The notes: generated by a model not told the origin, from the letters alone. A DNA stretch of 64,000 bases from an uncultured Pseudomonadales bacterium (GCA_964633875.1 CAZWKL010000005.1:12412-76411); one strand, 5' to 3'; counted from the stretch's first letter, positions 3,012 to 61,131 are shown. Numbers and translations: made by a program.

Positions 3012-3060
3012 GCCAAGCTAGCCAAGGTGGTTCCGCCTACGGCGGATCTGAAAAACATGA
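3012..3060 (+). pseudogene. degenerate 5' fragment copy of tRNA-Phe carrying a TCCGCC-TAC-GGCGGA hairpin ('decoy')
   Basis: The first 20 nt (GCCAAGCTAGCCAAGGTGGT) are identical to the tRNA-Phe 5' end at 3093. The hairpin TCCGCCTACGGCGGA (3032-3046) then replaces the D-stem/anticodon-stem segment. The 14 nt TCTGAAAAACATGA is shared with the anticodon loop region. No T-arm or acceptor 3' strand follows. Confidence 0.7.
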
Positions 3061-3092
3061 AACGCTAGCGATTAACAAACGATTTGATACAA

Positions 3093-4091: not shown

Positions 4092-5123
4092 CTATTCCGC
4101 AGCACTGAGCTGCAGTTGCTGGTTAAAATATTGCTTCTCCATAGCTGAGCGAAAGGCATTATATTGGGCAGTAGGATTATCGGCTGTATCAAGAAAACTA
4201 AAACCGGCAAACGGCCCGGGCGAGCCTTTCAAAATAAACGGTGTCACCGCTGCCACTCTGTCATGCGACCAAATATGCTCAAGAGCGTAAACATAGTAAG
4301 CGGGCAACCAACGCCTGAGAGCAGAGCTTTCCTCCCAGCCGGTTTCAGTGATATAAACTTGCAAATCTTGCTTAGTTTTACCTGCCAAAAACTGTAGCTC
4401 ATACTCGAAACCATTCATGCCATTTTTGGCTTTTCTCTGCGGTGAGGCCGCGAAACCAGGATTAGGATAAGAGTGCGAGTTCCAAGCATCAGCATAAGCA
4501 AAAATCTCTGGGTCAAACTCATGCATCCGCGTTAAATAATTAAAAGCTTCCATAGTTTCCGGACCATTAGGAGCGGCCAAATCCATCGCTGCCGGCATCA
4601 CTACAAACGCACTGTCCACCGCGTGAGCCCAACTGCTGGCAAAACGAAAAACCCGGGCGTAATCAATCGGATCAATGACGCCACCCCATTCCTTAGCGTG
4701 ATTGACCTCGTTGTAAATAATGATGTGTTTCTGCTGAGTGGGCCACTGAAATTGACTCAAGGCATTGATCTGATCCACTGTATTTTTGCGGTTGGGAATA
4801 GTCCAGCCCTGGCCATCCATGGTAGAGGCCAGTCTGACAATAGGAATAATTCTGTTTTCCTTGGCTTCATCGAAAAACTTTTGCCACTGAGAGGTTTTGT
4901 CAATGTCCTCAAGAGTGTAGGGCACCGTCACGTAATGCCAATTTTTATCTACCTCATGCATCCGCACCAACTGCTTGGCATCCACTATTTCTTCAGGATG
5001 AAGAATATGAATACCCATCTTAGAAACATTGGCTGCGCTGACCTGAGCAGGAAACACCCACAGCCCAAAAAACAGCAAGCTGAGCAACAATTTTTTCATC
5101 ATTGTAATATTATAGGATATCAT
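4092..5123 (-). CDS. secreted glycoside hydrolase, clan GH-A (GH5-like TIM barrel)
   Basis: Signal peptide MMKKLLLSLLFFGLWVFPAQVSA. NE in IIIYNEVNH and E in ITETGWE match the acid/base and nucleophile motifs of GH-A enzymes. Confidence 0.5.
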   Translation of the reverse strand: MISYNITMMKKLLLSLLFFGLWVFPAQVSAANVSKMGIHILHPEEIVDAKQLVRMHEVDKNWHYVTVPYTLEDIDKTSQWQKFFDEAKENRIIPIVRLASTMDGQGWTIPNRKNTVDQINALSQFQWPTQQKHIIIYNEVNHAKEWGGVIDPIDYARVFRFASSWAHAVDSAFVVMPAAMDLAAPNGPETMEAFNYLTRMHEFDPEIFAYADAWNSHSYPNPGFAASPQRKAKNGMNGFEYELQFLAGKTKQDLQVYITETGWEESSALRRWLPAYYVYALEHIWSHDRVAAVTPFILKGSPGPFAGFSFLDTADNPTAQYNAFRSAMEKQYFNQQLQLSAAE

Positions 5124-6346: not shown

Positions 6347-7024
6347 ATGTCAGCCATCACTTATCAGCATCGCGTCAATCCCAGAGCTAAAAGGCTAATT
6401 ATGAGGGTGGAGCCGGATGGTACCGTCTTGGTCACCACACCCAGATTTACCCCGCAAAAAACCATTGCCCGTTTTGTTGAAGAGCACCAAGACTGGATTA
6501 CGGCTGAAAAAAACCGGCACCAAAATAAGCCACGGCCAATCACTCAAGATGAAGTGATGGTTTTTGGCAAAAAATACACCAAGACTTTGCGTTATTCTAG
6601 CCAAGTGCCGGTAGGAGTGAAAATTGTTGGTGACGAGCTCATCCTCAACCCCACCGAAAATAAATCATCCTGGGGTAGAAGCGAAAATAATTTACTGAAA
6701 AACTACCTCAAGCACACTGCCGAGAGATACATTCTTCCCAGAACCGCGCAATTTGGGGAAAAAATGGCTATTACCTATGGCGCTATCACCCTGAGAGAAC
6801 AAAAAACCAGGTGGGGTAGTTGCAGCAGCAGAGGTAATTTAAACTTCAACTGGCGGTTGGTGCATTACCCCCCGGAAATCATTGATTATGTGATCATTCA
6901 TGAGTTGGCTCACCGGCAACACATGAATCATTCTAAACAATTTTGGCACTTGGTGGCGGAACATGATCCCGCCTACCGCGTACACAGGGGGTTCTTGAAA
7001 AGACAGGGAATGTCGCTAGGATAA
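6347..7024 (+). CDS. YgjP-like (DUF45/M48-like) metal-dependent hydrolase
   Basis: WRLVHYPPEIIDYVIIHELAHRQHMNH contains an HExxH motif in a context typical of YgjP/SprT-like proteins. Confidence 0.65.
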   Translation: MSAITYQHRVNPRAKRLIMRVEPDGTVLVTTPRFTPQKTIARFVEEHQDWITAEKNRHQNKPRPITQDEVMVFGKKYTKTLRYSSQVPVGVKIVGDELILNPTENKSSWGRSENNLLKNYLKHTAERYILPRTAQFGEKMAITYGAITLREQKTRWGSCSSRGNLNFNWRLVHYPPEIIDYVIIHELAHRQHMNHSKQFWHLVAEHDPAYRVHRGFLKRQGMSLG

Positions 7025-30766: not shown

Positions 30767-31939
30767 ATGACCGGAAAACAAACCAAATACCAATCAAATA
30801 AGGTTCAAGCTTCACACCGGCAGCCGAAAATTAAGGTTGCGGTGGGAATGTCTGGCGGGGTTGATTCATCGCTGGCTGCCCATTTGCTGGTAGAGCAGGG
30901 GTATGATGTCACCGGAGTTTTTCTGGAGTGTTGGCGCGCACCCGGCTGCCGCAGTGATGAGGACCGTAAAGATGCCCTGGAAGTGGCGCTGGGTTTAAAC
31001 GTTCCTTTCAAAGTTTTGGATTTTAAAGCAGCTTACCGCCAACAAGTGGTGGAAAACTTCTTTGCCGAGTACGAAGCCGGCCGGACTCCCAACCCAGACG
31101 TGCTTTGCAACAAAGAAATCAAGTTTGGCCTGTTTTATGACTGGGCCATGAGTGAGGGTTTTGATTATATTGCCACCGGACATTATGCCAAAAAAGTGGC
31201 AATTGAGGCGCAAAATTTCCTGGCCATTCCTGCTGATCACGCTAAAGATCAGACTTATTTTATGCACTTGATCACTCAAAACCAACTTGATCACACTATT
31301 TTTCCTCTGCAGGAACTTAACAAAAATCAGGTTCGCACCGAAGCCAAAAAAAGAAAGATTCATGTGGCGGAGAAAAAAGATTCTGTCGGCATTTGTTTTA
31401 TCGGCGATATCAACGTGCATGATTTCCTCGAGGAGAGGCTCGGGAAAAATCCGGGCGAGGTGGTTGATACTCAAGGTAACGTCATTGGCGCTCATCAAGG
31501 GTTATGGTTTTATACTGTCGGCCAACGCAGCGGTTTTACCGTTAACCAAACTAGCCTGGTCAAACACACTGACGGCTCCACCATTACTAAACACAACATC
31601 CCGCCTTTTTATGTGATTGGTAAGGATGCAGAGAAAAACCAGCTGGTGGTTGGGTTTGGGAGCAAGACTTTTAGGGACGAGTTTAGTATTTCCGGGCTGC
31701 ACCTTATCGACCCAAAAAGTTCGTCTGTTTTGCGCGAAGAAAGGCTGAAAGTTAGAATCCGTCACACCGGCGAGTTAATTCCTTGCCAAGTTGAGGGCAA
31801 TTCTAAAGTTATTTTGGAGAAACCGACTAAAGGCATCGCGGCAGGGCAGAGCGCGGTGTTTTATCAGCAGACCGGGAATGAGATTATTTGTCTTGGGGGT
31901 GGGGTGATTGAGTTTGGTATTGAGGATCTACACGCATAA
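30767..31939 (+). CDS. mnmA: tRNA-specific 2-thiouridylase
   Basis: PP-loop KVAVGMSGGVDSS and MnmA-typical central and C-terminal blocks. Confidence 0.9.
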   Translation: MTGKQTKYQSNKVQASHRQPKIKVAVGMSGGVDSSLAAHLLVEQGYDVTGVFLECWRAPGCRSDEDRKDALEVALGLNVPFKVLDFKAAYRQQVVENFFAEYEAGRTPNPDVLCNKEIKFGLFYDWAMSEGFDYIATGHYAKKVAIEAQNFLAIPADHAKDQTYFMHLITQNQLDHTIFPLQELNKNQVRTEAKKRKIHVAEKKDSVGICFIGDINVHDFLEERLGKNPGEVVDTQGNVIGAHQGLWFYTVGQRSGFTVNQTSLVKHTDGSTITKHNIPPFYVIGKDAEKNQLVVGFGSKTFRDEFSISGLHLIDPKSSSVLREERLKVRIRHTGELIPCQVEGNSKVILEKPTKGIAAGQSAVFYQQTGNEIICLGGGVIEFGIEDLHA

Positions 31940-32879
31940 GCATTTCAATCAACCTCAACTTGAAAAATGTCCTGGTGTTAAGTAGCGCATCTTTCCATCT
32001 GTCGGGGCCTTTATCAGCCATTACTCTTTGTTCATGTTTATAACTATCTTCTAATCCTTTACCTATAAGAAACCGGGTGGGAACACCACCAATGCTGATA
32101 CCTCTCACATCTGCTGGTGATTCAACTAAACGTTGTTTGGGATTTCCTGCTTGGTCCACCTCTTCTTCATTGTACATAGACACCACTTCGCCATTTTCGT
32201 TCACTCGGATACTTTGAAGAGTTTCAACATCAGTCTCCCCATCCCTGTCTACTTTTCCGCTCAAGCCACTAAATAAATGGGCATCTATTACTTCTTTCCC
32301 AGCTTCGTCTAAGATACTAAATTGTCTAAACAAGTATGAAGTAAGCCCTCTCGGATGCGGTTCGGCATTACTTTCATTAATTGTTGATAACTTGATAATT
32401 CCTTTTTCATTCAGTTCTTTTAGGGCAGCCTCAACTTCTTCCAACATATCCACTGGGACCAGTAAATCAACATCATTAAATGTGTCTCCCTCTACTCCGA
32501 ACTCTTCTTGATGCACCATTTCGACAGGAATCAAATGCCCTTGATGTAGGCTTAAAGCCCATAAATAAATAGCTACAGATCGAGTAATAACCAAGGGCAC
32601 ATCATGTTTTTCAAAAACTTCTTGCACAGGACCTATAATTTTTAATAGACGTTTTAAGACCTCATAGAGAGCGTATTCTTTCTCGATTTTCCGAACTTTT
32701 TCTTCTGGAATACCTGGCTCATGTCTCAAATCAGAAACTAGTTCAAATTCAGGAAACTTAGGAGAGAAATCTGGTTCTTGGGACAAATCAGGTGCTGGTA
32801 TTTCGCGCACTAACGTAAGTCCTGGCACTGCAGACCCTTGTTCTCGATTTTCATCCACAGGACCATCTATTTCTGACAT
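31884..32879 (-). CDS. hypothetical acidic protein with possible minimal nucleotidyltransferase-like motif
   Basis: FGVEGDTFNDVDLLV resembles the hG[GS]x(n)DhD core of Pol-beta-like NTases. The N-terminus is acidic. Convergent 56 nt overlap with mnmA. The local sequence looks AT-richer than the surroundings. Confidence 0.5.
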   Translation of the reverse strand: MSEIDGPVDENREQGSAVPGLTLVREIPAPDLSQEPDFSPKFPEFELVSDLRHEPGIPEEKVRKIEKEYALYEVLKRLLKIIGPVQEVFEKHDVPLVITRSVAIYLWALSLHQGHLIPVEMVHQEEFGVEGDTFNDVDLLVPVDMLEEVEAALKELNEKGIIKLSTINESNAEPHPRGLTSYLFRQFSILDEAGKEVIDAHLFSGLSGKVDRDGETDVETLQSIRVNENGEVVSMYNEEEVDQAGNPKQRLVESPADVRGISIGGVPTRFLIGKGLEDSYKHEQRVMADKGPDRWKDALLNTRTFFKLRLIEMLMRVDPQYQTQSPHPQDK

Positions 32880-32946: not shown

Positions 32947-32974
32947 TTGACAATCACTTGCCAGATGTTAAGAT
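32947..32974 (+). promoter_or_regulatory. putative sigma70-like rRNA promoter
   Basis: TTGACA (32947-52), about 16 nt spacer, TAAGAT. It lies about 500 nt upstream of 16S and is followed by a GC hairpin and a boxA-like AAACAATTTA. Confidence 0.35.
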
Positions 32975-33377
32975 ATAAATCCTCATAGAGATCAAGTCTC
33001 CGCCAACTGGCGGACGAAACTAGTCTCCCCAAACAATTTAAGTTGTGCATTAGCCAAGATGATAGAGAGAATCAAACCTCTCTGTTTTTTGCTGATTCAA
33101 TTGGGAAAAGAGGATTGGCGGTAATTTAAGACCGCCCAGCTATTTAAAAAGTGAATATCTGACATAAACATGGTGGTAGAACCGCGACACAAAAGTGTGA
33201 GAAGCGGAACACTATCATGTTTTTTATGACAGTGATCCGTCATATTTGAACTTTGAGTTCAGTAAAGACTGCGAGTAATTCGCAGCACAAATACGTATAA
33301 CGTAAACACAATGAGCACAAATTCAAACCTCAATTAAGTCAATAGCTTTTTAGACTTCGGTTTAAAAAGTTAAAGAA

Positions 33378-33440
33378 ATTCTTTATGAGAGTTTGATCCG
33401 CCGCAGGCGGATGAACGCTGGCCAGCTTTTGCCGGTCCAA
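33378..33440 (+). other. degenerate duplicate of the 16S 5' end carrying a TCCGCC-GCA-GGCGGA hairpin (leader 'decoy')
   Basis: TTTATGAGAGTTTGATCC and GGATGAACGCTGG are identical to 16S positions 1 to about 40 at 33466 onward. The native CTGGCTCAGG is replaced by GCCGCAGGCGG, which keeps a hairpin. Confidence 0.7.
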
Positions 33441-33473
33441 CGTAACAAACAATCATGAAGACAGCTTTTTTAT

Positions 33474-33509
<36 letters not shown>

Positions 33510-34505: not shown

Positions 34506-35393
34506 ACAAAAAACTCGCGACCCGTACTAGAAATGGTACGAGAAAAATCTGGCTCATATCGGTGAAGTCCGGTTATCGCAAACTGTTTGCAAGGAAATTC
34601 TTGTAAACTTGCCATAATGGATAATACCGAGGGAAGTCGGGTAATTACGAGTGTCTTTAGAGCTCGGAAAAATCTTGAGCTCTGTTTAACTAATCGTCAA
34701 ATGTCCATAGTTCTAGGTTCAATTCTCGGTGACGCTTATGTCCATCCAAAAGGAAAAATCTGCTTTGAACACTCAGAGCAGCAAAAAAATTACCTTTTAT
34801 GGAAGTATGTAGAACTAAAGAATTTAGCTTATCCTCAAGTAGCAAAAGTTACTCGTAAGGATAGGCGGAACAACAAACAGACAATTAGTTGGCGGTTCTT
34901 CTTGAGGCAATATTTTCGCCCCCTGAGAGCTGCTTTCTATTTCAAAGGCAAAAAAGTAGTACCAGATGATCTTAATCTTTGGTTTACGCCCTTGCTTTTG
35001 TCGGTCTGGTACATGGATGACGGATACCTTGATCAAGGAAAATACCCAGTTTTTATGACTGAGTGCTTTGATAACAAAAATATAAGTCTTCTAACAGAAA
35101 TGTTAAGAGAAATATTTAAACTGCAAAGCATTATTACTTCCAAGAACAGGATCCGTATAGTTAGTAAAAGCAGAACACAATTCTTTTCACTGATAGAGCC
35201 GCATATTACTAAAGACCTCAAATATAAATTACCCTGACCCCGTAACGACTGGAAGCCGCTTATCAGGCGGTGGAAGATCCGCCCCAGGCGGATAACACGC
35301 CAGCCCCTATTTTCTGTAATTGATTTCTGTAATTGATTATAGAAAAAGGGTGAAGGTATAGTCTGGCATTTAGAGTAATCTAGATGGTTTTGG
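34506..35393 (+). mobile_element. 16S intron 1 (about 0.9 kb, probably group I) with homing endonuclease ORF
   Basis: The sequence between 16S exon GTCGTGA and the resumption GACGTCTATTTAAGTATAGTAACGAGCGCAACCC. Boundaries are approximate to within a few nt. Confidence 0.7.
34587..35237 (+). CDS. LAGLIDADG homing endonuclease (double-motif) encoded in 16S intron 1
   Basis: Motifs LGSILGDAYV and VWYMDDGYL. The start may be internal (MSIVLGSILGDAY). Confidence 0.8.
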   Translation: MQGNSCKLAIMDNTEGSRVITSVFRARKNLELCLTNRQMSIVLGSILGDAYVHPKGKICFEHSEQQKNYLLWKYVELKNLAYPQVAKVTRKDRRNNKQTISWRFFLRQYFRPLRAAFYFKGKKVVPDDLNLWFTPLLLSVWYMDDGYLDQGKYPVFMTECFDNKNISLLTEMLREIFKLQSIITSKNRIRIVSKSRTQFFSLIEPHITKDLKYKLP

Positions 35394-35700
35394 AGACGTC
35401 TATTTAAGTATAGTAACGAGCGCAACCCTTGCCGTATGTTATACGTGTCATGCGGGACTGCCTGTGCATTGCACAGGAGGAAGGAGAGGACGACGTCAAG
35501 TCAGCATGTCCCTTACATCCGGGGCTACACACATCCTACAATGGGGTAGACAACAGGTATAGCAACAGCGCGAGCTAGAGCCAATCCTCTAAACTACTCC
35601 TCAGTTCGGATTGGAGGCTGCAATTCGCCTCCATGAAGCCGGAATCGGTAGTAATCGCAAATCAGCAGGTTGCGGTGAATACGTTCTCGCTCCTTGTACA

Positions 35701-36606
35701 AATAAATATGCGCCTTCCGCGCATACTATCCAGTTAGTTTAAATCTAACGTGTCATAAGCAAGTAGACACAAGCAAAATTGCAAGCCTATCCGGGTAACC
35801 GGCAGGCTGAAGGGCAAAAGTAGCGGTGGTCAGCTTGGAGTTTAAACGGCATAGTGCTGTGAGGATCCTGCGTACAACTGGAGAACTCACTTGCTAACAC
35901 AAACAGCACTCTGTATGTGGGCTCGAGATGATCGCGAATGGATAGTATGTGAACGAAGGGAGATCCTGTTTGCTCTCTATTTGATGCAAAGAAAATAGAG
36001 TATAGTGAAGGTAACAACACTAAATTAGTAAGCAGGAAGTCTGCAGAGGTCATAGTATCAGCGCCTTGGCGTTGAGAAGGACCAAACTTAGTGTCATGAA
36101 ATTGTCTCCTGAATATGTGTGCGGGTTTGTTGATGGCGAAGGTTGCTTCACTATCACCATTGCCAAGCACAAACAGAAAAAACTCGGCATCGATGCCCGT
36201 CTTCATTTTGAGATTGAAGTGCGAGCAGATGATATTGAAATTCTGAGAAGAATTCAAGAAACGCTGGAGTGTGGCAGAATATATCATCTCAATTATGAGA
36301 GGTATGGCTGGCATCCCCATGCAGAATTCAAGGTTTCTTCTTTAAAGGACATTAGAGAAAAAGTAATACCATTCTTTCAAAGGTATCCACTTCAGGCAAA
36401 GAAAAAGGTTGCTTTTGACCAATTCGTTAAAGCAGCAAAGATTTTTGCCGAAAAGCGACACCTAACCTCAGAAGGTATTAAAGAATTAAAACAAATCAGG
36501 AAACAAATGAATATATATAGACACCAAGGGTTCGCCACGGTGCGGGAAAACCGCGCGCCGGGCGGCGAGAGACACATGAATCAGTGATGACATGATGATC
36601 TCAGAA
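35701..36606 (+). mobile_element. 16S intron 2 (about 0.9 kb) with homing endonuclease ORF
   Basis: Insertion between CCTTGTACA and CACTGCCCGTCAAGCC. Boundaries are approximate. Confidence 0.7.
36096..36587 (+). CDS. LAGLIDADG homing endonuclease (single-motif) encoded in 16S intron 2
   Basis: CGFVDGEGCFTITI is the LAGLIDADG motif. The ORF track extends the start to 36066. Confidence 0.8.
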   Translation: MKLSPEYVCGFVDGEGCFTITIAKHKQKKLGIDARLHFEIEVRADDIEILRRIQETLECGRIYHLNYERYGWHPHAEFKVSSLKDIREKVIPFFQRYPLQAKKKVAFDQFVKAAKIFAEKRHLTSEGIKELKQIRKQMNIYRHQGFATVRENRAPGGERHMNQ

Positions 36607-37122
36607 CACTGCCCGTCAAGCCAGCAAAGTCAGCAACGCCCGAAGCGGGTGACCGTAATTATCTTTTGATGAAGCGGCCCTTCTACGGCGAGGTTGGCGA
36701 TGAGGACTAAGTCGTAACAAGGTATCCGTACTGGAAGGTGCGGATGGATCACCTCCTTTCTAAGGAGATGGGTAGGAGCAATCACGACCTCCTGTTTCCC
36801 GCGCTTAGTAATAAGCGCAAAACAAATTAAAAAAATCCCGTGGCTATCATACCCGGGCCGTGTCCGCCGGAAGCGGATCGGCTCTACCACCATGTTTGTG
36901 TCAGAATTCACTTAAACATTTTCCAAACTTTTGTTAATTTCAGCAAGAATTGGTCAAGCCAGTGAGCTAGTTTAATGATATCTTCTATATCAAAACATAT
37001 CTTTATACATCATTTTTCCTTGATACATCAACCAGAAAAATTTCAGCCGCAATTTAGCAGTCTTTTTTCTTGTCTGCTAATTACTACTTCACACCATCTC
37101 ATAATCTAGTTACAATAACTGA

Positions 37123-37581
37123 GTGCCAAGTAAAATCAAAAACTACACCCTAGTGTTTCTGTTTAATGAGGATCTTTCTAAGGTAGTGCTCATCAAGAAA
37201 ACTCGGCCTAAGTGGCAGAAAAATAAGTTCAATGGCGTTGGTGGAAAAATTGAGAATGGAGAAAAAACTGTTGAAGCTGCAGCTCGGGAAATAAAGGAGG
37301 AAACAGGTTATGTCATTAATAATAAGTCAAAATTAATAAAAATTGCCAGCATGGAATCGAATGAGTGGAAAGTACATATCTTTGCCGCTCAAATATATGA
37401 AGATGTAAAAATGCACGAAGCCACAGAAGAAGGAGAGGTTCAGTGGCACCAAACAAGCAATCTGCCCACTAACTGTATAGATAACTTGCCTTGGTTAATT
37501 CCATTATGCCAAAATAAACTAAAAGAAAATTACATTGATAGATGCCATATTTTTTACAAAAACGACACCGAGCATCAGTAA
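37123..37581 (+). CDS. NUDIX hydrolase
   Basis: NUDIX box GGKIENGEKTVEAAAREIKEETG. GTG start. Confidence 0.8.
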   Translation: MPSKIKNYTLVFLFNEDLSKVVLIKKTRPKWQKNKFNGVGGKIENGEKTVEAAAREIKEETGYVINNKSKLIKIASMESNEWKVHIFAAQIYEDVKMHEATEEGEVQWHQTSNLPTNCIDNLPWLIPLCQNKLKENYIDRCHIFYKNDTEHQ

Positions 37582-37601
37582 ATGCCTAAAGGAGGACGCT
37601 T

Positions 37602-40166
37602 ATGGATATGAACAAACTCACCACTAAATCAGCCGAAGCCCTGCAAGGGGCGATGCAACTGGCCGGAGAGCTGTCTCATCCGGAAATTTTGCCGCTCCAC
37701 CTGGCAGTTGTTTTGATCAATCAGCCGGCAGGGATTGTGCCGGCACTTTTGCAAAAACTGGATCAGGACCCGCAAAAAATTTCCAGCGCTCTCCAAGAAG
37801 CACTGAGCCAAAAGCCCACCGTGTCCGGGCCCACCCAGGCCTATCTCTCTTCAGCTTTAAAAACAGTCTTTGATGTTGCCGAGAAAGAAGCCGGACAAAT
37901 GAAAGACGAGTTTGTCAGCACCGAGCACTTGTTTTTAGGCTTGCTGGAACAAAAAGAAGTTGGCGAAATTTTCGCTGTCTCAACCAAAGAAGTCAAAAGC
38001 GCGCTTAAAAACCTGCGAGGCAAGCAAAAAGTCACCGACCGTGATCCTGAAAACAAGTTTCAGGCTTTAGAAAAATATACTCTGGACTTCACCCAGTTGG
38101 CTGCTGACGGCAAGATCGATCCCGTTATCGGCAGGGATCAAGAAATCCGCCGGATTATGCAAATTCTGTCCCGCCGCACCAAAAATAATCCAGTGCTGGT
38201 AGGGGAGCCGGGAGTTGGTAAAACCGCTATCGTGGAAGGCTTAGCTAAGAAAATTATTGAAAATGATGTCCCAGACCAACTGCGGAATAAGAAATTGCTT
38301 TCGCTGGATATGGGTAGCTTGGTGGCTGGAACCAAGTATAGAGGAGAATTTGAGGACAGATTGAAAGCAGTAATTCAGGAAATCGAAGCAGCGGAGGGAC
38401 AAATCATTCTCTTTATTGATGAGCTGCACACCATTGTCGGCGCCGGAGCGGCGGAAGGCTCTACCGATGCCGGCAATCTGCTTAAGCCGGCTTTAGCTCG
38501 TGGCAGTCTACGTACAATTGGCGCCACCACTTTGAAAGAATATCGCCAGTATGTGGAAAAAGACGCTGCCCTGGAACGGCGCTTCCAGCCAGTGATGGTT
38601 AACGAACCAAGTGTGAGCGACACCATTTCCATTCTTAGAGGCATTAAAGAAAAGTACGAAACTCACCACGGGGTGAGGATTAGGGACAACGCTTTGGTGG
38701 CCGCGGCCAAGCTTTCCGACCGCTATCTGCCTGACAGATTTCTGCCTGACAAAGCCATCGACCTTATGGACGAAGCCGCCGCGGCCATCAAAATTGAACT
38801 CGACAGCAAGCCTACCGAGCTTGATCAACTAGAAAGACACCTCCGGCAGCTGGAAATTGAAAAGCAAGCGCTCAAAAAAGAAACCGATGAGCAATCCAAA
38901 TCCAGGCTGAACAAGATTGAAAAAGAGCTTTCCGATCTGGGAGAGCAGTACTCGCAGCTGGAACTGCAGTGGCAAAATGAAAAGAAAGTCATTGATGAAA
39001 TCAAGTCCTTAAATCAAAAATTGGATGAACTCAGAGAGGCGGCAGCCCAAGCCGAGCGCAATCTTGACCTGCAAAAGGCAGCAGAAATAAATTATGGCGA
39101 AATTCCCAGTGCCAAAAAGCGCCTCGACGAACTCCAGCAAGAATTGGAAGAAGTGCAGCAACATCAGCAAATTCTCAAAGAAGAGGTGACGGAGGAGGAT
39201 ATAGCCAGGGTGATTGCCCGCTGGACGGGTATTCCCACCGAAAAAATGCTCATGGAGGAAAGTGAAAAACTCGCCAAGATGGAAGAGGAGATCGGTGTGC
39301 GCTTGATTGGACAACGCCAGGCGGTGGCGGCCGTCGCCAACGCGGTCCGGCGTAGCCGGGCAGGGATTAAGGAGGAGGGCCGGCCGATTGGTTCGTTTAT
39401 GTTTCTTGGCCCCACCGGGGTTGGTAAAACCGAATTGGCCAAGGCTTTAGCGGAGTTTCTTTTCAACGATGAAGACGCCATTATCCGTATTGATATGAGT
39501 GAGTACATGGAGCGCCACGCGGTTGCCAGACTAATCGGCGCTCCTCCCGGTTACATCGGCTACGAAGAGGGCGGCCAGCTCACCGAAGCGGTGCGGCGCC
39601 GGCCATACAGCGTAGTTCTTTTTGATGAAATTGAAAAAGCCCACCCAGAAGTTTTCAACACTCTGCTGCAAATCCTTGACGAAGGCAGACTGACAGACAG
39701 CAAAGGCAGAACTGTTGATTTTAAGAATACTGTTATCATCATGACTTCCAACCTCGGCAGCGACAAAATTCAAGCGCTCCAGGGTGATAAGCCAGCAGTA
39801 GAGGAGGCGGTCCACCAAGTTCTCAGCCAAAAATTCCGCCCGGAATTCCTCAACCGCCTCGATGAGATTATTATTTTTGACCCACTTTCAGAGGCAGAAA
39901 TCGGCCAGATCGTTAAACTGCAAATCGCTGAGGTGCAAAAAAGGCTGGCGGACAAAAATATTACTATCGAAATATCAGCAGAAGCCGCCGCCGAGTTGGC
40001 TAAACAAGGTTTCGATCCGGTTTTCGGCGCCAGACCGCTCAAGCGCCTGATTCAAAATACCATTCTGGACCAGCTTTCCCTGCTGATTATTGAAGGTAAA
40101 ATCAAAGAAGGCGGAAAAGTCAAAGCGGTGGTGAAAAACGGCCGGATTGTCTTAAATAAGGCGTGA
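37602..40166 (+). CDS. clpB: ATP-dependent chaperone ClpB
   Basis: Two AAA+ modules ([16 protein letters not shown]), a coiled-coil middle domain, the ClpB N-domain, 854 aa. Confidence 0.95.
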
Positions 40167-40228
40167 TATAATTCAATTCGCGCCAATTTTTGCGCCTGCT
40201 TATGTTACAATAACCCTCTCAGGAAGAT

Positions 40229-40302
40229 GGGTGACTAGCTCAGTTGGTTAGAGCGCAGTCCTGATAAGACTGAGGTCAATGGTTCGAATCCATTGTCACC
40301 CA
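40229..40302 (+). tRNA. tRNA-Ile(GAT)
   Basis: GGGTGACTAGCTCAGTTGGTTAGAGCGCAGTCCTGATAAGACTGAGGTCAATGGTTCGAATCCATTGTCACCCA. Anticodon loop CTGATAA gives anticodon GAT. Confidence 0.85.
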
Positions 40303-40378
40303 CATTTTCTTTTCCCATAGGTTCGCTGTTCCTATTCACCCTTGCGCTTTAGCAGACAAACATTTAGAATGCTAATTT

Positions 40379-49160: not shown

Positions 49161-49904
49161 ATGGCAAGTCCAAGATTCAAAAGAGTGATGCTCAAAGTTG
49201 GTGGCGAATCTCTGCTCGGCAACCGGGAGTACGGCATTGATCCCCAAGCTGCTCTTGAAGTTGCAGAGCAAATTAAAGAAATTTACGCCAAGCATGTGCA
49301 AGTGGCCATAGTTATCGGCGGCGGCAATATTTTCCGCGGCTTGGCTGGTTCAAAACACGGGATTGAGCGCGCCACCGCTGATTACATGGGCATGTTGGCC
49401 ACTGTCATGAACGGCTTGGCGTTGCAGGATGCTTTAGAAAAAATCGGCGTCCCCACCAGGATGCAATCGGCGCTTTCCATGCCGGCTGTAGCCGAGAGCT
49501 TCATTCGTCGGCGCGCCATCCGGCATATGGAAAAGGGCAGGGTAGTAATTTTGAGCGCCGGCACCGGCGTGCCTTATGTCACTACCGACACTGGCGCTTC
49601 GCTGCACGCGTTGGAGCTTCACTGTGATGTACTGATTAAAGCCACCAAAGTTGATGGGATTTTCGACAAGGACCCGGCTACAAATCCCGATGCCAAGCGG
49701 TTTGCCACACTTTCATTTAAGGACGCCATCAAAATGGAAGAAGTCCAGGTGATGGATACTGCCGCTCTGGCTATGTCGATGGAAAATAACATGCCGGTGA
49801 TGGTTTTTGAGCTTTTCAAAAAAGGCAATCTGAGCAAAGCTATAGACGGCAAAGATATCGGCACTTACGTCAGCAATGAAGTGGAAACTCAGTTAGCGGA
49901 GTAG
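49161..49904 (+). CDS. pyrH: UMP kinase
   Basis: MLKVGGESL...VAIVIGGGNIFRG; preceded by AAGGAAAAA. Confidence 0.9.
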   Translation: MASPRFKRVMLKVGGESLLGNREYGIDPQAALEVAEQIKEIYAKHVQVAIVIGGGNIFRGLAGSKHGIERATADYMGMLATVMNGLALQDALEKIGVPTRMQSALSMPAVAESFIRRRAIRHMEKGRVVILSAGTGVPYVTTDTGASLHALELHCDVLIKATKVDGIFDKDPATNPDAKRFATLSFKDAIKMEEVQVMDTAALAMSMENNMPVMVFELFKKGNLSKAIDGKDIGTYVSNEVETQLAE

Positions 49905-54728: not shown

Positions 54729-54741
54729 GTGAAGGATTTTG

Positions 54742-55090
54742 ATACAGAGTTCATAAGCCGGATTCTGTACTAGGTAATGATTTATCTAATGCCTGAAGCT
54801 TTATCATCGGCCGCTATAAAGCGGCTGGGAATAGATCCAATGCGATGAAACTCGTCAGTTGCAGCGGGGAGGATTGCCGCCCATTTGGCCTGAGCCAAAC
54901 CAGCACCCGATAGCTTGGTCGTTTCAACTGCCGCTACGCAGCTCGTCTCTGTGGCTCTGACTGTATCCGCCCGGGGGCGGACCTTTGGCTTAAACCTCAC
55001 GAAGAGGCCACCGCCAAACACCCTCTATTCTGCTGTCCGGACTTTCCTCCCATTGCGTTGAGCGCAACAGGCCATTACCGAACTCTGTGG
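54742..55090 (-). ncRNA. rnpB: RNase P RNA (bacterial type A)
   Basis: Minus-strand RNA contains P4 GGGAGGAAAGUCCGGAC (plus strand ctgtccggactttcctccc), the 3' consensus ACAGAAUCCGGCUUAU, and P1 pairing ACAGAGUUC with GAACUCUGU. Ends approximate to within about 5 nt. Confidence 0.8.
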
Positions 55091-61005: not shown

Positions 61006-61057
61006 TGTTTGGTAGACCAGCGCCTCAATTTCTTGCTATAATGCACTCCTCAAATAA

Positions 61058-61131
61058 GAACTCGTAGCTCAGTTGGTTAGTCCGCCTACGGCGGAGACAT
61101 CGAAGAGGGCGGGAGGTTGAAAATTAAATAA
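61058..61131 (+). pseudogene. degenerate 5' fragment copy of tRNA-Val(GAC) carrying a TCCGCC-TAC-GGCGGA hairpin ('decoy')
   Basis: 23 nt GAACTCGTAGCTCAGTTGGTTAG are identical to the tRNA-Val 5' end at 61132. The hairpin TCCGCCTACGGCGGA (61081-61095) follows, then the shared GACATCGAAGAGG, then divergence. An extended -10 TGcTATAAT (61034-61042) lies upstream. Confidence 0.7.

Follow-up and report, generated by a model that had tools for sequence, protein, structure and literature searches.

The DNA analysed here, a stretch of 64,000 nt deposited as from an uncultured Pseudomonadales bacterium (GCA_964633875.1 CAZWKL010000005.1:12412-76411; the whole stretch is called the window below), carries a 16S ribosomal RNA (rRNA) gene that starts at 33476, and our subject is the leader of that gene. 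Reading downstream, what lies there is a putative promoter, three hairpins that we call H1, H2 and H3, a boxA, and one strand of a long helix that would close around the 16S by pairing with the trailer. We hold this predicted architecture, in that order and with comparative support for each part, with high confidence, while the specific role of H1 can be proposed with low confidence. A first-pass annotation had seen at the start of the leader an rRNA promoter followed by a hairpin, TCCGCC-AACT-GGCGGA, and a boxA-like string, and had taken the last two together for a candidate boxB-boxA antitermination module whose hairpin recurs elsewhere in the window. The promoter string TTGACA-N16-TAAGAT, the boxA-like string and the hairpins it had placed at 32999-33014, 33397-33411 and 36863-36877 are all present at those positions. 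From the comparison with related leaders, that first hairpin appears to be the tip of a larger element, H1, which we take to be a conserved, covarying leader RNA element specific to its clade at about the family level.

The window is a natural metagenome contig. Contigs of independent public assemblies (ENA ERZ27247346 and ERZ27247376; Logan SRR8449813 and SRR6484323) match it without gaps at 99.995-100% identity, among them the 93.6-kb contig k141_1994639 of ERZ27247346, and this agreement over the region rules out a planted or artefactual sequence. The partial 16S copy described below as the leader decoy is covered by three of these assemblies. The 16S signature matches 117 species genomes, the majority labelled Patescibacteria or Candidate Phyla Radiation (CPR), including many Microgenomates-group lineages (Pacebacteria, Woesebacteria, Curtissbacteria), and a sizeable minority labelled Gammaproteobacteria or Pseudomonadales. 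The organism is a Pacebacteria/Microgenomates-type CPR bacterium, uncultivated and ultra-small. Its closest relative by 16S, L020 (species CAZESB01), is 97.7% identical over 836 nt, and about 20 others stand at 84-90%. For the comparison of leaders 91 related loci were used, each with the 700 nt that precede its 16S. Coordinates are collected in Table 1.

Table 1. Features of the 16S leader and of related sites, in positions of the window
Feature	Position	Strand	Remarks
Gene upstream of the promoter	31884-32879	minus	divergent
Putative -35 hexamer, TTGACA	32947-32952	+	TTGACn at the equivalent site in most relatives
Putative extended -10, TGtTAAGAT	32966-32974 (TAAGAT at 32969-32974)	+	16-nt spacer from the -35
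H1 leader stem-loop	32988-33027	+	middle stem GAGAT/GTCTC; internal loop 5' CAAG and 3' GAAACUAG; apical stem
Hairpin of the first-pass annotation, TCCGCC-AACT-GGCGGA	32999-33014	+	GC-rich variable apex of H1
Earlier boxA-like string, CCCCAAACAATTTAAG	33027-33042	+	not a boxA
H2 terminator-like hairpin, AUAGAGAG...CCUCUCUGU and U6	33061-33090 (hairpin 33061-33086)	+	9 pairs
H3 hairpin, GGCGGU-loop-ACCGCC	33117-33136	+	immediately 5' of boxA
Orthologous boxA (predicted), GCTATTTAAAAAGTGAA	33139-33155	+	best boxA match of the leader
Leader strand of the leader-trailer helix	33148-33181	+	overlaps the end of boxA
16S leader decoy, 87-nt insertion	33379-33465	+	copy of 16S about -11 to +35; direct repeat D13
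Hairpin in the 16S leader decoy, TCCGCC-GCA-GGCGGA	33397-33411	+	
16S intron 1	34506-35392		LAGLIDADG_2 open reading frame at 34617-35237
16S intron 2	about 35690-36606		LAGLIDADG_1 open reading frame at 36096-36587; group-II D1-D4 motif match 36000-36082
Trailer hairpin, GUG-UCCGC-CGGAA-GCGGA-U	36860-36878	+	lineage-specific insertion
Core of the trailer copy, TCCGC-CGGAA-GCGGA	36863-36877	+	
Trailer strand of the leader-trailer helix	36881-36914	+	pairs with 33148-33181
tRNA-Phe decoy	3012-3092		upstream of the gene
Hairpin copy within the RNase P RNA gene	54966-54981		
tRNA-Val(GAC) decoy	61052-61125		upstream of the gene

Promoter

The putative promoter scores 10/12 with an extended TG, and its hexamers and their spacing are of the sigma-70 kind (16-18 nt). 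The pattern match carries little weight alone, as a scan for it gives 15 sites in 10 kb where 13.2 are expected. The support for an rRNA promoter comes from its position relative to H1, which is kept in relatives. In 17 of them the AAGT of H1 is preceded, at 16-22 nt, by the end of a promoter of at least 10/12 that mostly has the extended TG, and the promoter of L020 is identical to that of the window. In the promoter scan no other strong plus-strand site lies between the divergent upstream gene and the 16S. On these grounds the reading of the first-pass annotation can be kept, and TTGACA-N16-TGtTAAGAT is in all likelihood the sigma-70-type promoter of an unlinked 16S rRNA gene, with transcription probably starting at about 32981.

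The H1 stem-loop

H1 would span about +7 to +46 of the transcript and is built in three tiers; with its flanks it folds at -17.1 kcal/mol (z = -3.7 against shuffles). It is conserved in at least 22 related 16S leaders. What the clade has in common is the middle stem AGAT/ATCT and an asymmetric internal loop, 5' mAAG and 3' wACUm, that is conserved in sequence. The apical stem varies among relatives in both sequence and length. In L020 it reads TTCGCC-ACA-GGCGAA, a C-G to U-A double change relative to the window, and in more distant relatives it takes forms such as GTCC-loop-GGAT and GTCTTG-loop-CAAGAT, shorter and less GC-rich than the apex of the window. The apical loop is AACU in the window, ACA in L020 and 3-7 nt of any sequence in the other relatives.

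The first-pass annotation had proposed that covariation of the hairpin stem be sought in related rRNA leaders, and the H1 stem does covary, with 98-99% of alignment cells paired. In alignment A1 (19 sequences) the apical pairs are 98% paired with compensatory changes between CG and UA, and RNAalifold returns the same two helices. The model-based alignment A2, likewise of 19 sequences, has 99.3% of its cells paired, a share that drops to 26-51% once the partners are slid, and the covariation score is 0.353 compared with 0.170 for shuffles, none of 500 shuffles reaching the observed value. The middle stem contains G-U pairs that would be C-A on the opposite strand, so H1 is to be read as a structure of the sense-strand RNA and not as a DNA operator.

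Of 100 related loci, 19 are matched by a covariance model of H1 (R1), each a single time and without exception in the 16S leader; 3 of the 19 lie outside its training set. Within the window the model matches the leader only, besides weak chance matches (E 0.09-8), two of which, at 4987-5029 and 49741-49761, fall inside coding sequence. Searched with Rfam 15, the leader has no credible match, whether the cut-off is the gathering score or E<=10, save obvious chance hits, and our literature search found no paper describing CPR/Patescibacteria rRNA leaders. H1 is, as far as these searches reach, previously undescribed.

The exact 16-mer of the window's H1 apex, TCCGCCAACTGGCGGA, recurs in the 16S leader of L013 (2274-2289), a distant relative at 78% 16S identity, and within the L053 16S near its 3' end. 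More generally, CCGCC-AACU-GGCGG caps non-homologous helices in several lineages (the 16S regions of L013, L053 and L033). The shorter CGCC-AACU-GGCG makes up 3 of 126 such hairpins in related loci, which is suggestive but not strong. Two possible pairings of H1 were considered and dropped: one of its 5' strand GAUCAAGU with the 16S 5' end GUUUGAUC, where most relatives have GAUAAAG, and an antiterminator alternative between H1 and H2 by way of the repeat ATAGAGA found in both hairpins, which is absent from L020.

boxA and the hairpins in front of it

The first 8 nt of the Escherichia coli boxA form its U-rich 5' part. Compared with the E. coli core GCTCTTTAACAA, the string that the first-pass annotation had called boxA-like, CCCCAAACAATTTAAG, reaches 6/12 at best, limited to the 3' AACAA part and without the U-rich 5' part, and it is the first 8 nt of boxA that NusB-NusE reads (PMC3177189). 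The string is common only to the window and L020. In its region the window can close a small AU hairpin of 5 bp from ACAAT and GTTGT, and L020 one from ACAAT and ATTGT. A much better match follows about 110 nt downstream. There GCTATTTAAAAA, at 33139-33150, agrees with the E. coli core (also written GCUCUUUAACAA) at 10/12 and aligns with a canonical boxA of the GCTCTTTAACAAGTGAAGA type, 9-12/12, in nearly all related leaders, where boxA is placed just upstream of a conserved AAACATGGTGGTAG. Judged by this alignment, the real boxA of the clade is at 33139-33155. The earlier idea of a Nus-type boxA in this leader was thus sound, but its location at 33027-33042 was not. With some 124 nt and two further hairpins between the end of the annotated hairpin and the clade boxA, that hairpin is not an adjacent boxB and the proposed adjacent module falls away. 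By position H3, not H1, would be the equivalent of boxB; at the H3 site L020 has a different stem, CGTGAT...ATCACG.

H2 has the predicted anatomy of an intrinsic terminator, a G-C-containing stem followed immediately by a U-run (-12.9 kcal/mol, z = -3.5). About 15 of 27 related leaders likewise have a comparable hairpin and U-run at some point from promoter to boxA, their stem sequences being unrelated to one another. By eye, a second promoter might be read in L064, L106 and L110, whose U-run is immediately followed by TGnTAnAAT, a motif like an extended -10.

The leader-trailer helix

The duplex between leader and trailer strands is roughly 33 bp long and is predicted at -66.7 kcal/mol, against -30.8 +/- 4.7 kcal/mol for shuffled trailers. 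It covaries in relatives, with GGTGGTAG/CTACCACC, GGTGATAG/CTATCACC, GATGGTAG/CTACCATC and CGATGGTA/TACCATCG as paired variants. The conserved AAACATGGTGGTAG segment that follows boxA is part of the leader strand, and no UCUGUGUGGG-like boxC string is present. The helix is probably an RNase III-type processing stem bracketing the 16S. The TTAAACATTTT-like string in the trailer (36912-36922), which the first-pass annotation had likened to boxA, overlaps at its start the outer end of the trailer strand and is better explained as belonging to the helix. The hairpin in front of the trailer strand is an insertion of this lineage, since at least 10 relatives read from CCAGGTC directly into GGCTCTATCACC, straight into the trailer strand. 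Part of the leader strand, 33166-33180, can also pair locally with 33211-33224 (AAACAUGGUGGUAG with CACUAUCAUGUUU), and this may be a temporary structure formed before the trailer is transcribed.

Copies of the GC-rich hairpin and partial gene copies

The pattern TCCGC-N3-8-GCGGA occurs 7 times in the window where 0.17 copies are expected, all as listed on the plus strand and every one in a stable-RNA context: the H1 apex, the 16S decoy, 16S intron 1 (35278), the 16S trailer, the RNase P RNA, and two tRNA decoys. Their loops are TAC twice, GCA, CCA, AACT, CGGG and CGGAA. The copies have the GC-rich stem in common and differ in their 5' flanks; those other than the H1 apex lack the middle stem and internal loop of H1, and R1 detects none of them, even at E<=10 with filters off. 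The hairpin does recur at 33397 and 36863, as had been noted, but the copies are not the same element as H1. Stems of the CCGCC/GGCGG type are frequent besides, 786 kb of related genomes holding 53 of them in rRNA helices and terminators. Several of the copies are recent, the trailer insertion among them, and at one intron site a hairpin has been swapped. In intron 2, L020 (reverse complement 6931-6945) carries the 15-mer TCCGCCTACGGCGGA (TCCGCC-TAC-GGCGGA), the same as in the two tRNA decoys of the window, and at the corresponding site (36058-36075) the window has CAGCGCCTTGGCGTTGA (CAGCGC-CUUG-GCGUUG) within flanks that are 97% identical.

What we call decoys are partial copies of the 5' end of an RNA gene placed before the intact gene. 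Each is built from 18-29 nt identical to the 5' end of the gene, a hairpin replacing 7-11 nt, another 13-14 nt of identity and a filler, after which the intact gene begins. From decoy start to gene start the spacing is 87 nt for the 16S, 81 nt for tRNA-Phe and 74 nt for tRNA-Val. In the 16S decoy the loop of helix 1 is replaced by GCC-GCA-GGC. L020 has no 16S decoy, the same upstream context running directly into the 16S, and L124, L128 and L129 have no decoy between the promoter and the tRNA-Val(GAC) gene, a gene whose sequence in L124 is the same as in the window. The 16S decoy pattern has no match in 185,579 species genomes or in the Joint Genome Institute (JGI) metagenomes, nor has the tRNA decoy pattern in the JGI metagenomes, so that decoys must be rare or specific to the lineage; the additional 13 kb of contig outside the window holds no further ones. 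The three decoys are recent, lineage-specific partial copies, and neither they nor R1 lend support to the suggestion that their hairpins are Nus-type boxB-like elements.

The fillers of the 16S and tRNA-Phe decoys share a tail motif, TAACAAAC(A/G)AT, and CAAACAAT follows H1. We do not rely on this resemblance: for an 8-mer to be common to two fillers of 30-45 nt the chance, with post-hoc choice taken into account, is roughly 1-5%, and a longer consensus matched one copy only. In eleven related loci (L015, L027, L032, L040, L050, L055, L060, L082, L089, L091 and L096) there are exact duplications of 15-28 nt, 37-140 nt apart, which by sequence resemble ends of tRNA genes beside tRNA genes, the tRNAs there not having been called; none of the duplications carries the TCCGCC hairpin. 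Among related CPR genomes the partial duplication of tRNAs may be a more general habit.

Discussion

We think it reasonably probable that the region is an ordinary rRNA leader, consisting of promoter, H1, H2, H3, boxA and leader-trailer helix, with H1 as its promoter-proximal module. NusB and NusE would load on the boxA at 33139 rather than on 33027-33042 and would make the elongation complex resistant to termination and competent for folding, as in E. coli, and the leader-trailer helix would be processed as an RNase III-type stem. H1 would be the first structure to leave the polymerase and is the only one with a conserved internal loop; a protein, or RNA polymerase itself, could recognise its invariant middle stem and asymmetric internal loop. 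Its most likely role would be to help the polymerase to pass H2, to organise and protect the 5' end of the pre-rRNA, or both. Since boxA comes only after H2, whatever protects the polymerase from terminating at H2 has to lie upstream of it, and H1 is the candidate. In a bolder reading, which we consider improbable, H1 would be a cis-acting RNA of a new kind that takes the polymerase past H2 before boxA is made. H1 is boxB-like only in a loose positional sense, as the role we propose is that of a promoter-proximal module and not of a neighbour of boxA.

Several observations weigh against this explanation. The E. coli boxB can be deleted with little effect (PMC10250234), so even the loose label predicts little. 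The start site, the read-through of H2 and the processing sites are all predictions from sequence. The basal stem that H1 has in many relatives is missing in the window and in L020. H1 is limited to relatives with roughly at least 84% 16S identity, farther Microgenomates carrying other hairpins at that place, and being so confined it is not essential to rRNA transcription in general. The terminator-like hairpin that H1 would help to overcome is absent or weak in about 12 of the 27 relatives, by a crude detection. The boxA of the window has two substitutions relative to the clade consensus GCTaTTTAAaAA, one of them in the 5' part read by NusB. Finally, the annotated 77 kb of the 93.6-kb contig contains no Nus factor gene, which is uninformative for the whole genome.

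The earlier proposal of a single Nus module, with boxB at 32999-33014, boxA at CCCCAAACAATTTAAG and the other hairpins as copies, has points in its favor. The place just after the promoter resembles E. coli rrn, where boxB, boxA and boxC follow P2, the 9 nt AACAATTTA are identical to a stretch in the 3' part of the extended boxA sequence of E. coli, and the TCCGCC/GGCGGA stem is far in excess of expectation. Given that the candidate boxA lacks the part read by NusB-NusE and is unconserved beyond L020, that a canonical boxA is conserved downstream of it, that R1 recognises none of the other hairpins, and that the trailer string belongs to the helix, we regard this proposal as very unlikely. It is rather unlikely, though distinctly less so, that H1 has no part in transcription and acts as a 5'-terminal shield from 5'-end-dependent nucleases, or as a positioner of a processing cut, until the 16S has folded. 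Hairpins at the 5' end are well known as stabilisers of transcripts, for example in the ompA 5' untranslated region, and like that one H1 is a stable hairpin within a few nucleotides of the primary 5' end, beginning about 7 nt from the inferred start, with an apex that varies freely provided pairing is kept. For such a stabiliser a stable stem would suffice, yet H1 conserves the sequence of its internal loop mAAG/wACUm and of its middle stem AGAT/ATCT, which points to specific recognition; moreover the leader is discarded anyway.

That H1 and H2 form a separate small RNA of about 110 nt ending at the U-run at 33090, with the 16S transcribed from another start, would agree with the terminator anatomy of H2 and with the promoter-like motif behind the U-run in three relatives. 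It seems to us highly improbable, as the window has no other plus-strand promoter-like site between 32975 and the 16S, boxA and the leader strand of the helix, both downstream of H2, would be left without a promoter of their own, and the terminator-like hairpin is missing in so many relatives. We find it scarcely credible that a repressor or activator binds here, just downstream of the start, to a DNA operator. The inverted repeat is palindromic, close to the promoter and contains the conserved AGAT...ATCT, but its apical stem changes in sequence and length and stays complementary, where operators conserve sequence and not pairing, and the G-U pairs make sense on one strand only.

A different question is where the GC-rich tip itself comes from. 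It is possible, though we doubt it, that it is a small palindrome spreading through, or being written into, the stable-RNA loci of this lineage and sitting without function in the tolerant apex of H1, a view that is compatible with the explanation of H1 as a whole given above. The exclusively stable-RNA contexts of the seven copies, the insertion of the trailer copy relative to its relatives, the exchange within intron 2, the absence of the decoys from relatives, and the longer, more GC-rich apex in the window all fit it. Repetitive extragenic palindromic (REP) elements, the GC clusters of yeast mitochondria and the Rickettsia palindromic elements are likewise GC-rich palindromes in AT-rich genomes, found also inside RNA genes, and in small mobile palindromes presence and absence differ between close relatives as they do here. 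Against this, the hairpins of the window are much shorter than those elements, at 15-16 nt, their loops differ among copies as simple copying would not lead one to expect, stems of this type are common in related genomes, and three copies accompany 74-87-nt partial duplications of the 5' end of the target gene, which those palindromes do not. Unlike REP elements they have no conserved flanking tetranucleotide, and no RAYT-type or transposase-like gene is seen in the annotated 77 kb. A stronger form of the idea takes TCCGCC-loop-GGCGGA for a module that is being actively inserted into the stable-RNA transcription units of this lineage, or is specifically recognised there, and that marks the three 'self-healing' decoy insertions; we consider it an improbable but worthwhile speculation. 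If true, it would amount either to a new type of miniature element that has RNA genes as its targets but leaves them intact, or to a processing or decoy signal of a new kind.

Comparison with known systems

In E. coli rrn, boxB, boxA and boxC lie just after the promoter, boxC inside the leader strand of a leader-trailer helix of 25-40 bp (rrnTAC; PMC10250234). The present leader follows the same plan, from promoter to hairpin or hairpins, to boxA, to the leader strand of a long helix bracketing the 16S, and its boxA is recognisably the same, scoring 10/12 in the window and as much as 12/12 among relatives. It differs in having three hairpins before boxA, with the conserved H1 some 124 nt upstream and not adjoining it, in the sequence conservation of the H1 internal loop where the E. 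coli boxB is poorly conserved and dispensable, in the intervening terminator-like hairpin, in the lack of a UCUGUGUGGG-type boxC string, and in a 16S that is unlinked to the 23S. The clade-specific 5' stem-loop, the terminator-like hairpin before boxA and the unlinked 16S are thus the departures from the known type of leader with Nus/boxA and leader-trailer helix.

The lambda nut site also presents a short hairpin and a boxA in the nascent transcript soon after the promoter, but in the reverse order, boxA coming before the boxB that is bound by N. The lambda boxB has a 5-bp stem and a 5-nt GNRA-like loop (GAAAA/GAAGA) read by N, and H1, with its freely varying loop, does not resemble it in this. 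Antitermination without boxA is known from the put sites of phage HK022 and from the Bacillus EAR element, in which a structured promoter-proximal RNA is made before the terminator that it has to overcome. A logic of this kind is the only way in which H1 could affect H2. The resemblance is by logic only, since sequence and structure show no similarity and there is no Rfam match, put consisting of two stem-loops and EAR being far larger.

A near-canonical boxA beside a covarying helix suggests that these reduced genomes keep a Nus-type coupling of rRNA transcription and processing. H1 offers a clean, covarying, clade-specific motif whose conserved internal loop is a candidate binding site, and the terminator-like hairpin that many relatives have before boxA poses the question of the polymerase's passage. 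For annotation the lesson lies in the true location of boxA, the finding being otherwise mostly ordinary, and the decoy insertions are a more unusual feature of this locus than the leader itself.

Neighboring genes and introns

The 16S is followed at 36760-40303 by a NUDIX gene, clpB, tRNA-Ile(GAT) and lon, and not by a 23S, from which we take the rRNA genes to be unlinked. Farther along, a class A RNase P RNA gene lies at 54738-55090 on the minus strand (94.8 bits, E = 1e-29); a default Rfam scan misses it, its score being below the gathering score of 100. The 16S itself holds two introns with homing-endonuclease (LAGLIDADG) open reading frames. L020 (reverse complement, 7587 onward) is without intron 1, has intron 2, and carries a third intron after AAGTCGT that is absent from the window. 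With such differences between two 16S genes that are 97.7% identical, intron content must turn over quickly.

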